From Escherichia coli (lineage in GTDB: Bacteria; Pseudomonadota; Gammaproteobacteria; Enterobacterales; Enterobacteriaceae), in the NCBI RefSeq assembly GCF_024298765.1, contig NZ_CP101219.1: a stretch of 2,353 nt of DNA, one strand, 5' to 3'. The notes under the pieces are model-generated. The model was not told where the DNA came from and did not search any database. It saw nothing but the letters and a program-made list of their open reading frames with translations. Positions 598 through 1,968 of the stretch are shown piece by piece (position 1 is the stretch's first letter; each line of letters begins with the position of its first letter). The position numbers and the translations under genes were made by a program.

Positions 598-1200
598 CCT
601 CGCAATGGGAGCATTAATCACCGTACAGTGCTCCGCCAGATGCTGGCGGCCTCAAATCCACCAAGCCGCCACGGTTCCGGCAGCGCCTTGAGCGCAACCG
701 GAAACCGACTGGGGAGAACCCCAGACCCCCACCGCTGCAACATCATCGGTCTGCGACCACCTACCAACCGAGTGGCTGCCTGTACCGTGCAAACGGGCTT
801 TGCAGGGGGCTGGCGCGGTTCCTGGCGACCTGAAAGCCCCTGGTTAGGGGTATCGGCGCGCCTGGCTTCCTGAAACCCTCTGTAAGCGTTTTTCGCGCCT
901 TCCATGCCCTGACGGGCATTTAGACCCCGTTTTGTGCGTTTGGGAAGTTCTGAGCGCGTTTAACAGATGGCCAGCGACTCGATCGCCTAGAATCAAATCG
1001 GGATCATCAACGATATGCGAGAGGTGGCACCGCTCGCCGCAGCCCCAGCGACCGAGCCGCCAGGCTCGCGAGTGGGCGAGGAAGCGGAAGGGAATCTGAT
1101 TCAACATAGTGCACTTACGCACAGAATTTGGCCTACGCGCCCGCGTCCGTGCACACGTTTAATAAGAATTAAGAAGGGAAATCGCGATAAACCGCGCCAA
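598..1200. other. GC-rich island with no credible coding frame; candidate structured noncoding RNA or cis-acting DNA element, function unknown.
   Basis: Abrupt change from AT-rich flanks to G/C-majority sequence. The four ORFs in the track here (63-95 aa) overlap on both strands and are Arg/Trp/Gly/Pro-rich, as expected for chance frames in GC-rich DNA. Hairpins: CCGCCAG-atg-CTGGCGG (633-649); nested CGGTTCCGG...GCGC-cttga-GCGC...CCGGAAACCG (672-707); CCCCT-ggtt-AGGGG (837-850); ATGCCC-tgac-GGGCAT (904-919). Palindromes: GGCGCGCC (855-862), CTCGCGAG (about 1064-1071), GTGCAC at 1110-1115 and 1149-1154. Confidence 0.4.
821..880 (+). repeat. Imperfect 20-bp direct repeat CCTGGCnnCCTGAAAnCC (821-840 and 861-880) flanking a hairpin and the GGCGCGCC palindrome.
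   Basis: cctggcgacctgaaagcccc versus cctggcttcctgaaaccctc, 16 of 20 identical, start-to-start spacing 40 bp. A third CTGGCG copy lies at 810-815. Confidence 0.5.
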
Positions 1201-1332
1201 TCCTAGAATCTAATGATCAGGATATTGATCTAACGTATCAGAATAGAGCATCTAACATATCAATCTCTTGATACTTAAAATATTAATTGTTTGTTTTTTG
1301 CTCACCTTTGATGTGCTTTAATTGATATTTAA

Positions 1333-1352
1333 GGTATCAGAATTGTGATACC
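1333..1352. repeat. Palindromic operator/iteron 1: GGTATCA-gaattg-TGATACC.
   Basis: Perfect 7-bp inverted arms with a 6-bp spacer, read directly from the sequence. Confidence 0.6.
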
Positions 1353-1367
1353 AGTCGATTCGGTTTA

Positions 1368-1396
1368 TTGACATCTGGAGATTTTTTCTTGATAGT
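1368..1396 (+). promoter_or_regulatory. Candidate sigma70 promoter of rep: -35 TTGACA (1368-1373), 17-bp spacer, -10 GATAGT (1391-1396).
   Basis: Consensus -35 hexamer; the -10 matches TATAAT at 4 of 6 positions; ideal 17-bp spacing; correctly placed about 40 bp upstream of the rep ATG. Confidence 0.45.
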
Positions 1397-1398
1397 CG

Positions 1399-1420
1399 AG
1401 GTATCAGTTTATTGATACCT
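1399..1420. repeat. Palindromic operator/iteron 2: AGGTATCA-gtttat-TGATACCT, overlapping the predicted rep transcription start and just upstream of the RBS.
   Basis: Perfect 8-bp inverted arms with a 6-bp spacer; same core as operator 1, centre-to-centre spacing about 67 bp; lies between the candidate -10 (1391-1396) and the Shine-Dalgarno (1421-1425). Confidence 0.6.
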
Positions 1421-1434
1421 GAGGGTGTAAAATA

Positions 1435-1968
1435 ATGAGCAAGGCTTTAAACAAACGATTTAGTGAAAATCCTTTCATCAAAGATTTGATAATTCCTGTA
1501 AAAAACAAACAAGTAAGAATATCGCGATTAGGAGAAGATAATAACATAATGATTAACCAATCAACTGGAGAGGTTTTAGGGGGAACTTCGGTAGTAACTT
1601 ATAAAAAAGTTGATAGTGATAATTTTATTAAATTGTTTACCCAAAATATAAAATTGGCTTTCGAGTTAACACAAGCTGGTCAAAAAGCACTATTTGTTTT
1701 ATTTTGGGCAGTACAAAATAAAACAAATAATGATCTAGTCTTATTAGATCAATACACGCTAAATGATTTTATAAATGAAAACAAAGGTTTAACTATGTCC
1801 CTTCCAACATTCAAACGTGGGCTTGGGGAGTTGGTAAAATCACAAATATTAGCAATGAATAAGCGAAAGGGATTTTATTATATAAATCCTAATTTTGTTT
1901 TTAATGGTGATAGAGTTGCATTCACAACAGTTCTTGAAATGAATAAATCGAGTCATAAAGATAAATGA
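1435..1968 (+). CDS. repL: Plasmid replication protein, RepL family (177 aa).
   Basis: Intact ORF with ATG and Shine-Dalgarno, low-GC codon usage. C-terminal pattern ...LPTFKRGLGELVKSQILAMNKRKGFYYINPNFVFNGD resembles the winged-helix region and the conserved NP...GD motif I recall from RepL proteins such as staphylococcal pSN2 RepL. Palindromic operators and a promoter lie directly upstream. Family assignment is from recalled similarity, not a search. Confidence 0.6.
   Translation: MSKALNKRFSENPFIKDLIIPVKNKQVRISRLGEDNNIMINQSTGEVLGGTSVVTYKKVDSDNFIKLFTQNIKLAFELTQAGQKALFVLFWAVQNKTNNDLVLLDQYTLNDFINENKGLTMSLPTFKRGLGELVKSQILAMNKRKGFYYINPNFVFNGDRVAFTTVLEMNKSSHKDK

Follow-up and report, generated by a model that had tools for sequence, protein, structure and literature searches.

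A Candidate Rep-Controlled Replication Cassette with Origin Repeats and Operator-Like Palindromes in a Small Col(MG828)-Type Plasmid of Escherichia coli

Introduction

Among the systems closest to the plasmid analyzed here are the pHW126-like plasmids, i.e., pHW126 of Rahnella and pIGRK and pIGMS31 of Klebsiella pneumoniae, which are likewise small, low-GC, cryptic and mobilisable and are found in Gammaproteobacteria. Their Rep proteins are distant RepL relatives with a winged helix and, like the Rep described below, lack HUH or Rep_trans motifs. Their elements follow one another as in the plasmid here, in the order ssi-like palindrome, conserved block (CR), direct repeats, inverted repeats at a strong sigma-70 promoter and rep. 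Their Rep proteins bind these inverted repeats and repress the rep promoter. In pIGMS31, the initiator RepM showed its strongest EMSA binding to the inverted repeats IR1/IR2, repressed the repM promoter and dimerised; the +1 lies inside IR2, the IR and iteron sequences are related, and RepM introduces a nick immediately before the CR (10.1101/2022.12.05.519187). IR1 of pIGMS31 belongs to the minimal origin and is also an enhancer, and the Rep proteins of pHW126 and pIGMS31 relax supercoiled DNA (10.1101/2022.12.05.519187; PMC2831885). The relaxase activity of RepM was, however, also seen on pUC18 without the origin, and the authors advise caution (10.1101/2022.12.05.519187). RepR of pIGRK represses PrepR via IR/DR operators (PMC6854812).

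In this study, we compared these systems with the replication region of a small E. coli plasmid. A search of the literature for experiments with Col(MG828) RepL replicons returned surveillance papers only ('RepL' also matched 'replication'), and one on the replication of pBGR1, pBGR2 and pBI143 returned nothing about mechanism.

The Plasmid and Its Rep Protein

The window, i.e., the whole stretch of DNA analyzed (2,353 nucleotides), is a complete 2.35-kb E. coli plasmid that, judged by the typing of its relatives, is of the Col(MG828) type: relatives with 92-93% DNA identity across the whole plasmid carry this type in PLSDB. Locus L002, despite a very different RepL protein, is also typed Col(MG828). 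Because plasmids with very different RepL proteins type alike, the typing probe may sit within shared non-coding DNA. Small plasmids of this type occur in food-animal and human E. coli.

Only two open reading frames, rep and a nikA-like gene, were found on the plasmid. As the other frame is nikA-like, rep is the sole candidate for the initiator, and its product is most likely the plasmid replication initiator. The gene (1435-1968, plus strand) encodes a 177-aa protein that the initial annotation had assigned to the RepL family with a winged helix, and both assignments were supported, the winged helix as a prediction. The PF05732 profile matched residues 37-168 (profile positions 13-133 of 164) with 38.2 bits against a gathering cutoff of 20.3 (E 1.3e-9), and the same family was found in nearly all of the 120 best Rep homologues. 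AlphaFold confidently predicted one winged-helix domain at about residues 61-150, outside which the model is poor (mean pLDDT 68). Rep had no match to Rep_3 at E ≤1 and has a single winged helix, not two in tandem; neither Pfam nor the predicted structure revealed an HUH or Rep_trans family or fold. An NCBIfam scan of Rep gave nothing meaningful, neither Rep alone nor a 58-sequence profile gave a significant match in sequence searches of solved structures, a Foldseek search against the PDB gave only weak winged-helix matches (E > 0.04), and a tblastn search of phage genomes for phage-borne RepL relatives gave no match.

The rep cassette (about 1124-2063) is low in GC and is swapped among plasmids with a common nikA/oriT backbone, which shares approximately 94% identity with several Col(MG828)-type RepL plasmids. 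The plasmid had been proposed to be a mosaic replicon with a Firmicute-type initiator. The mosaic part holds in the sense of a low-GC rep cassette that is exchangeable between nikA/oriT backbones, but a Firmicute mosaic is not supported: the label "Firmicute-type" came from the Pfam family title alone, and the close relatives are all from Gram-negative hosts (Enterobacterales, Bartonella, Vibrio, Arsenophonus and Bacteroides). With zero close relatives from Firmicutes, a recent Firmicute origin was rejected.

Downstream of rep, an inverted repeat, ACCCGCCAA...TTGGCGGGT (1981-2016), lies between the convergent rep and nikA-like mobA genes and reads as a candidate terminator. A terminator scan left it unflagged (loop >8 nt), and an Rfam scan of the whole window gave only weak, sub-threshold matches, at this rep/mobA terminator region.

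Palindromes and Candidate Promoter Upstream of rep

Sequence reading and a pattern search confirmed two previously noted perfect palindromes of the form GGTATCA-N6-TGATACC at 1333-1352 and 1400-1419, with starts 67 bp apart. The first, IR1 (GGTATCA at 1333-1339, GAATTG, TGATACC at 1346-1352), is a candidate upstream operator and/or origin element, and its 3' end is 15 bp from the -35 hexamer. The second, IR2, extends over 1399-1420 (AGGTATCA at 1399-1406, GTTTAT, TGATACCT at 1413-1420) and is the candidate main operator. The arms are perfect over 7 nt in IR1 and 8 nt in IR2, and both 6-nt spacers are non-palindromic. We noticed a third palindrome that had been missed, IR0 (1257-1274, ATATCA ATCTCT TGATAC), whose outer base is imperfect and whose core TATCA ATCTCT TGATA (1258-1273) has a geometry identical to that of IR1 and IR2. 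IR0 partly coincides with the second copy of a 13-nt direct repeat (see below).

Half-sites are found within and around these palindromes. Those at 1235-1240 and 1269-1274 are present as first reported but are not "degenerate", being exact copies of GTATCA and TGATAC. An extra TGATA half-site on the minus strand (1323-1327) lies 12 bp before IR1 within a 36-nt direct repeat, D2, whose copies at 1317-1352 and 1384-1419 are 75% identical, and another TGATA (1390-1394) overlaps the -10 hexamer. A longer, 67-bp tandem duplication was considered and rejected, as the likeness between 1317-1383 and 1384-1450 stops after the 36-nt unit. IR1, IR2 and the direct repeats have (A/G)[G/A]TATCA in common.

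The clustering of these sites is not random. All three TATCA-N6-TGATA occurrences in the window are upstream of rep, where shuffles lead to an expectation of 0.01 and none of 200 reached three. GTATCA/TGATAC occurs six times within 1200-1434 compared to a shuffle mean of 0.20 (0/5000 shuffles reached six), and a pair of palindromes sharing one 7-nt arm sequence and one spacer length was found in 2 of 2000 whole-window shuffles. In the comparisons below, the palindromes show the behaviour expected of sites that the Rep of this plasmid binds.

The candidate rep promoter (1368-1396, plus strand) matches the consensus, with the -35 hexamer TTGACA (1368-1373) separated by 17 bp from the -10 hexamer GATAGT (1391-1396), although promoter-like sites as a class were not enriched in the window (4 found vs. 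6.9 expected). The ribosome-binding site GAGGGTG (1421-1427, plus strand) stops 7 nt short of the ATG at 1435. As first described, the second palindrome is placed between the predicted -10 and this site, and it overlaps the expected +1.

The position of IR2 next to the ribosome-binding site could suggest a function at the RNA level, i.e., a 5'-leader hairpin affecting translation or mRNA stability, and a single strand of IR2 is predicted to fold more stably than its shuffled versions (-5.6 kcal/mol, z = -4.2). We nevertheless consider such a hairpin very improbable. Its stem is weak and, given the -10 at 1391-1396, transcription would start near 1402-1404, inside the left arm, so that the hairpin could not form in the mRNA. 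Moreover, IR1 and IR0 lie outside the transcript yet have the same sequence and geometry, which points to a protein site on DNA.

Candidate Origin Elements

Two iteron-like direct repeats of the form ATCTAAC[G/A]TATCA, also missed at first, are located on the plus strand at 1228-1240 (ATCTAACGTATCA; repeat family D8, invariant in close relatives) and, 22 bp further, at 1250-1262 (ATCTAACATATCA). The previously described AT-rich stretch is real (25-26% GC over 1200-1349) and includes a spacer at 1275-1316, the most variable part of the region, in which 10/43 columns vary among close relatives. The earlier suggestion that the origin is embedded in this same region fits the two direct repeats and the conserved block upstream of them. 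The IHF-consensus match that had also been cited is present at 1258-1270, but this match is IR0 itself, so that it is not independent evidence, and IHF as a separate origin feature was rejected. A DnaA-box search of the window gave one relaxed match (510-518), at chance level and far from rep.

The conserved block (1163-1227, plus strand) opens with the 17-mer TAAGAATTAAGAAGGGA (1163-1179) and is a candidate nick or core-origin region, a role proposed by analogy with the CR of pHW126-like plasmids. None of its 65 columns varies among seven close relatives. The 17-mer is oriented with rep and lies upstream of it in every relative compared with a Rep at least 51% identical, Bartonella included, except for L027, whose upstream flank is incompletely covered. 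It is absent from the pHW126-like loci, pBI143, L014 and L002.

Further upstream, a GC-rich imperfect palindrome, CCGCTCGCC...GGCGAGGAAGCGGAAG (1026-1095), is ssi-like and a candidate single-strand initiation or primosome assembly site; we take it to resemble the n' (PriA) site of pBR322/ColE1. It precedes rep in nearly all RepL plasmids whose Rep is at least 51% identical, and is present in 2145 PLSDB records of many plasmid types, in all of which it is unannotated. Its fold energy was no better than that of shuffles, and a possible primosome role is suggested by the resemblance to the n' site.

An invariant block beside variable, allele-specific repeats recalls the nic/bind layout that is usual in rolling-circle origins of the pT181 and pMV158 families. 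The palindromes might thus be mainly the bind locus of a rolling-circle-type double-strand origin, where Rep is positioned for nicking and any effect on rep transcription is incidental. The relaxation of supercoiled DNA by the pHW126 and pIGMS31 Rep proteins, the nicking by RepM near the CR, the inclusion of pIGMS31 IR1 in the minimal origin and the absence of a DnaA box near rep are all consistent with this possibility. We consider it unlikely, however, since IR2 is some 170 bp away from the conserved block, in the interval that separates the -10 from the ribosome-binding site, a position typical of an operator and odd for a nicking-complex site; HUH and Rep_trans motifs and folds are missing from Rep; and RepM relaxes origin-less pUC18 as well. 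The bind-locus and operator roles can also coexist.

Conservation and Co-Variation among Relatives

Within 1200-1434, 1 of 45 half-site columns varies among close relatives, as do 27 of the remaining 191 columns (Fisher p = 0.02), a difference that is only modestly significant and rests on about three independent lineages; with the IR arms alone, the same test gives p = 0.22. In IR1, 3 of 6 spacer positions vary and the arms are kept; in IR2, none of the 22 columns varies. The -35 and -10 hexamers are invariant in the seven relatives, and the spacer between them varies.

Plasmids with 70-80% identical Rep proteins have up to three TATCA-N6-TGATA palindromes before rep, always with a 6-nt spacer, although none was detected in L026 and L031. 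In this sub-clade the last two palindromes are 44 or 67 bp apart, and a palindrome of this type is found 19-36 bp before the ATG in 8 of 9 further sub-clade plasmids compared. Loci L024, which does not span its whole contig, and L031, whose called start is apparently preceded by another ORF, were left out of the comparison of upstream regions. A palindrome equivalent to IR0, made up of iteron 2 and an inverted half-site, is found in L022, L023, L025, L027 and L028, and TTGACA-17-GATATT is at the place equivalent to the promoter in L025 and L026. A concerted change to CTATCA/TGATAG affects both the palindrome arms (L025, L029) and the direct repeats (L025, L026, L029). In relatives with 51-60% Rep identity, the repeat sequences are entirely different and the layout is unchanged, with a pair of direct repeats spaced by 22 bp at the corresponding place, one inverted copy inside the promoter and one more copy ahead of the ribosome-binding site.

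The modules beside the palindrome-bearing rep differ: NikA in this plasmid, a Mob_Pre relaxase in L022, L025 and L028 and a primase-like protein in L027. By this comparison, the sites track rep rather than the mobilisation module. These observations also bear on whether something other than Rep, either a host protein or the NikA-like ribbon-helix-helix protein of the plasmid, binds the palindromes. Proteins of the NikA family bind repeats, TATCA/TGATA resembles parts of AT-rich host-factor sites, and one palindrome fits the IHF consensus, all of which would agree with such binding. The same palindromes, however, also precede rep in plasmids without nikA that have Mob_Pre relaxases or other cargo, and the half-site differs between Rep alleles in the same kinds of host, a change that a host factor would not need. 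The IHF match arises incidentally from a spacer with A first and T last, and IR1 and IR2 have no such match. We therefore regard binding by a protein other than Rep as highly unlikely.

Proposed Mechanism and Significance

The best explanation, to which as a whole we assign a probability of roughly three in four, is that 1026-2016 serves a small Col(MG828)-type plasmid as its replication cassette, in which Rep binds the TATCA sites both to initiate replication and to switch off the rep promoter. Rep, with its single winged helix, would recognise the half-site (A/G)GTATCA. At the putative origin, it would initiate replication from the direct repeats at 1228 and 1250, beside the invariant 1163-1227 block and the AT-rich stretch. 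At the putative operators, half-sites are arranged head-to-head with a 6-bp spacer in the three palindromes, which Rep dimers would bind; the half-site centers are 11 bp apart and would thus be on the same helix face. IR2 is directly after the -10 and over the predicted transcription start, IR1 is just upstream of the -35, and an extra half-site is on the -10, so that occupancy of the operators would block RNA polymerase and Rep would restrain its own synthesis and hence plasmid copy number. Given the double role of IR1 in pIGMS31, in the minimal origin and as an enhancer, the IR1 of the plasmid here may be more than a pure operator.

The sites, their non-random clustering, their conservation and concerted change with Rep alleles, and the family and predicted fold of Rep were observed here; we infer Rep binding, dimerisation, the transcription start and repression from the homologues and the geometry. 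By comparison with the relatives, the proposed autoregulation of rep through the palindromes is well supported. Of the initial annotation, the RepL family of Rep, its predicted winged helix, the operator-like sites and the candidate origin region are supported, and the IHF match as independent evidence and the Firmicute type are not.

A wider reading, which we offer tentatively and consider rather doubtful, is that the Gram-negative RepL plasmids, including pBI143, are one large, barely studied class of hybrid replicons. Their single-winged-helix initiators may combine a rolling-circle-like origin, in which allele-specific repeats adjoin an invariant nick-like block, with theta-like iteron and operator control and with a simple recognition code, readable from natural variants, in which residue 127 of the recognition helix (K, W or R) changes along with the base 5' of TATCA. 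In the lineage studied here, an antisense RNA inside rep may add a layer of control; the candidate runs from a promoter-like site on the minus strand (1904-1877) to a hairpin with 19-bp arms (1688-1732).

For the common and unstudied Col(MG828)-type plasmids, the analysis provides a testable map of origin repeats, three candidate Rep palindromes and a promoter, and presents their rep cassette as an exchangeable low-GC module. The natural variants with switched half-sites could define incompatibility groups and help engineer compatible mini-replicons. The practical value is modest.

Comparison with Known Systems

With the Rep of pEA1, a plasmid typed Col(IMGS31) that served as a stand-in for the pHW126-like family, Rep shares 32% identity over 162 aa (E 1e-25). 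Like the plasmid studied here, pIGMS31 has two inverted repeats directly before rep, and by sequence the candidate operators here appear related to the iterons, as those at the rep promoters of pHW126-like plasmids are. A CR of approximately 20 bp is 'characteristic for all members' of that family. The block conserved among the relatives of the plasmid here, TAAGAAnTAAGAAGGGA, matched neither of the pHW126-like loci L013 and L017 at up to 3 mismatches, and a different conserved block is at the analogous position. The plasmid here also differs in having two 13-nt direct repeats instead of four 20-bp iterons, three palindromes with 5-8-nt arms and a fixed 6-bp spacer, and a shorter Rep (177 vs. 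201-260 aa). A C-terminal coiled coil, as reported in pIGRK and pHW126, is missing from its Rep, and no sign of a second in-frame Rep' was seen.

Closer in sequence are other Col(MG828)-type RepL plasmids of Enterobacterales (e.g., pColZ, pB771_2328 and pRHB41-C11_6) and pBGR2 of Bartonella, with Rep proteins 51-60% identical. These plasmids have the ssi-like element, the TAAGAAnTAAGAAG block, two direct repeats with the same 22-bp spacing and inverted repeat copies around the promoter, as here. Their repeats (e.g., GTACTACGGTAGCTCA and AGACGGTCTATCA), however, are unrelated in sequence to those here, and the distance from rep to the repeats is about 70 bp shorter. In L010 and L011, the two inspected in detail, the operator is seemingly one long-range inverted repeat that brackets the -10, not two compact 20-bp palindromes. 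More distant is RepA of Bacteroides pBI143, a RepL-family relative (32% identity, E 8e-12), whose plasmid likewise has two direct repeats (CATTTTCCA) spaced by 22 bp and inverted copies before repA but belongs to a host of another phylum, has other repeat sequences, lacks the 17-mer and carries a MOBP-typed mobilisation gene.

In the classical iteron theta plasmids (pPS10 RepA, F RepE, pSC101 RepA and R6K pi), Rep monomers initiate replication and dimers repress. These plasmids follow the same logic, with direct repeats at the origin and an inverted half-site repeat over the rep promoter. They differ from the plasmid here, where Rep has one winged helix and no Rep_3 match, no DnaA box lies by the repeats, and relatives show relaxase activity and rolling-circle intermediates. 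Rep would work like the iteron-type theta initiators, yet falls outside the Rep_3 family. The known picture of replication control is left unchanged by our findings, as the same logic has been shown in pIGMS31, pIGRK, pHW126 and the classical iteron plasmids.

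Gene content and the replication cassette

The window (2353 bases) is an entire small circular plasmid; in related records, its last base is directly followed by its first. The complete E. coli plasmids pGF4-H (2354 bp, chicken meat) and pVTB448v-6 (2356 bp, chicken) are of nearly equal length and match its replication cassette (1124-2063) at 99.4-99.7% identity. PLSDB assigns the type Col(MG828) to relatives with 92-93% DNA identity. Only 7 of 5426 complete E. coli genomes carry this rare rep allele, each time on a plasmid. Two genes are present: rep (1435-1968, plus strand, 177 aa) and, on the minus strand across the window ends (120 to 1, then 2353 to 2048), a gene for a 141-aa NikA-like ribbon-helix-helix protein (PF21983, E 9.5e-16). 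Neither of these two genes, which are all that the 2353 bases hold, encodes a relaxase; the plasmid therefore presumably relies on a relaxase provided in trans from elsewhere, with the NikA-like protein as a relaxosome accessory protein. Just upstream of the NikA-like gene (region 121-260), the inverted repeat TGTATTCGCGGTATGACGAATACA (195-218) is a candidate oriT element. An unannotated GC-rich element of about 80 bp (1015-1100) recurs in 2145 PLSDB records, from 1.5-kb cryptic to 46-kb conjugative plasmids, and resembles the primosome assembly (n') site of pBR322/ColE1.

The GC content is 32% in 1124-2063 vs. 61% in 601-1160. Over 1-653, 701-1123 and 2064-2353, the common 2310-bp Col(MG828) plasmids are ~94% identical to the window, while their RepL is almost unrelated to the present Rep (BLASTP E 0.065). 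Thus, the Col(MG828) type covers several different Rep proteins. The rep cassette (1124-2063) is an exchangeable low-GC module. The initial annotation had proposed a Firmicute-type RepL in a mosaic replicon. The Firmicute part is not supported: "Firmicute" occurs only in the title of the Pfam family, and the closest relatives come from Gram-negative hosts without exception.

The assignment of Rep to the RepL family itself was sound (profile search, 38.2 bits vs. a Pfam threshold of 20.3). Rep has 859 homologues at E < 1e-3, mostly on 1-5 kb contigs, and no sequence relative among solved structures. Its N-terminal third (residues 1-60; 1435-1614), which is modeled with low confidence, contains residues that are near-invariant over 58 homologues (R8, N12-P13-F14, S30, G33, D35 and T44-G45-E46) and may serve as a contact for a host factor or as a catalytic segment. 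Within rep lies an inverted repeat (1688-1732; 19-nt arms, one mismatch, 7-nt loop; DNA fold z-score -5.8 to -6.7) that is found only in the present allele and relatives of at least 98% identity and is missing at the equivalent place in relatives of 80% identity or less. On the minus strand, this repeat is followed by a T-run, and a promoter-like TTAAAA-16-TATAAT (1877-1904) is found ~150 nt upstream of it; together they may point to an antisense RNA or to a cis element of another kind.

Palindromes and candidate promoter upstream of rep

The twin palindromes described in the initial annotation, IR1 (1333-1352; GGTATCA-GAATTG-TGATACC) and IR2 (1399-1420; AGGTATCA-GTTTAT-TGATACCT), are both present at the positions reported, with starts 67 bp apart, far outside what chance would produce. 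TATCA-N6-TGATA occurs three times vs. 0.01 expected, and 1200-1434 contains six GTATCA/TGATAC hexamers vs. 0.2 expected, a count reached in 0 of 5000 shuffles. Twin palindromes with the same arms and spacer length were found in 2 of 2000 shuffles. Further analyses revealed a third palindrome, TATCA-ATCTCT-TGATA (1258-1273), that had been overlooked; its geometry is identical to that of IR1 and IR2, and it shares bases with the second copy of a 13-nt direct repeat, ATCTAAC[G/A]TATCA, at 1228 and 1250 (22 bp apart). The IHF match noticed earlier does exist (1258-1270) but coincides with the third palindrome and hence is not independent evidence. An extra TGATA precedes each of IR1 and IR2 by 12 bp (1323 and 1390), which makes a 36-nt unit that is present twice. 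The site spacings (11, 22, 44, 67 and 77 bp) are approximate multiples of ~11 bp and thus compatible with one helix face, which is only suggestive.

The promoter-like site before rep (-35 TTGACA, 1368-1373; 17 bp; -10 GATAGT, 1391-1396) matches the consensus at 10 of 12 positions, and the TGATA at 1390-1394 overlaps its -10. The window shows no excess of promoter-like sites in general; it is conservation that supports this candidate.

Conservation of the repeats

Seven close relatives, representing about three lineages, vary in 28 of 236 columns of 1200-1434 but in only 1 of 45 half-site columns (Fisher p = 0.02). No column varies in IR2, the -35, the -10 or the block 1163-1227, whereas 3 of the 6 positions of the IR1 spacer do. 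In the sub-clade with Rep 70-80% identical, known from metagenomes and one E. coli assembly, most members have two to three TATCA-N6-TGATA palindromes before rep. Their spacer is 6 bp without exception, the last palindrome mostly lies 19-36 bp before the ATG, and the distance between the last two palindromes is 44 bp in five plasmids and 67 bp in two lineages. At 51-60% Rep identity (including pColZ and Bartonella pBGR2), the repeat sequences are unrelated and the layout is equal: two direct repeats 22 bp apart and two further copies, one inverted between -35 and -10 and another before the ribosome-binding site.

In the sub-clade loci L025, L026 and L029, CTATCA/TGATAG replaces the usual half-site. 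All three have it in the direct repeats, and L025 and L029 also in both palindrome arms, a concerted change. A variable residue of the recognition-helix motif T-F-x-R-G-L (Rep residues 125-130; 1807-1824), set against the half-sites of L022-L030, is K in seven plasmids with GTATCA, W in L025 and L026 with CTATCA, and R in two plasmids with CTATCA or T/A-TATCA; P0007/L024 also has W and CTATCA-type repeats, but in an upstream region judged untrustworthy. This pairing is a possible recognition code, confounded by phylogeny.

The palindromes accompany rep regardless of other cargo: the present plasmid has NikA, L022, L025 and L028 have Mob_Pre relaxases, and L027 has a primase-like protein and a toxin. 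This speaks against binding by NikA or a host factor. The metagenomic contigs L023 (1957-2439) and L026 (2502-3089) contain a second RepL gene, each with its own TATCA-N6-TGATA palindrome; these contigs may be cointegrates, dimers of related plasmids or assembly artifacts.

Proposed mechanism

The feature is real and was correctly read in its essentials. We infer, with a probability of about 0.75, that Rep binds the palindromes and represses its own promoter, and we likewise infer its dimerization and the start site. Rep would recognize (A/G)GTATCA; single sites in the direct repeats next to the invariant block would serve initiation, and a Rep dimer would bind two sites placed head-to-head 11 bp apart. 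IR2 covers the expected start site and the extra half-site overlaps the -10, so that bound Rep should exclude RNA polymerase. IR1, 15 bp upstream of the -35, may add cooperativity or, as in pIGMS31, serve at the same time as an origin or enhancer element. With allele-specific repeats beside an invariant block, the region is similar in layout to the nic/bind arrangement of rolling-circle origins.

Comparison with known systems

The RepL-family relative RepA of pBI143 (NC_005026.1) is 32% identical to the present Rep, and two CATTTTCCA repeats 22 bp apart and inverted copies precede repA. pBI143 is reported among the most numerous human-gut plasmids, in a study that does not discuss its replication control (10.1101/2023.03.25.534219).

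The Rep of pEA1, typed Col(IMGS31) and thus pIGMS31-like, is also 32% identical (E 1e-25), which links the plasmid to the pHW126-like family, where experiments exist. In pIGMS31, two inverted repeats directly precede repM, with the +1 in the right arm of IR2, and are related in sequence to the iterons; the strongest binding of RepM in EMSA was to IR1/IR2 fragments, RepM also dimerizes, relaxes DNA and represses the repM promoter, and intermediates of theta as well as rolling-circle replication were observed (bioRxiv 10.1101/2022.12.05.519187). In pIGRK, RepR and the shorter in-frame RepR' repress PrepR via IR and DR operators, and the origin consists of the conserved region and iterons (PMC6854812). 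The family was distantly linked to pSN2 RepL by Rozhon et al. (PMC2831885). The present plasmid is not a strict member. Neither of the two pHW126-like loci examined has its conserved 17-mer, and in place of four 20-bp iterons it has two short direct repeats. It would work like classical iteron plasmids, although its Rep lies outside the Rep_3 family and is predicted to have a single winged-helix domain, not two.
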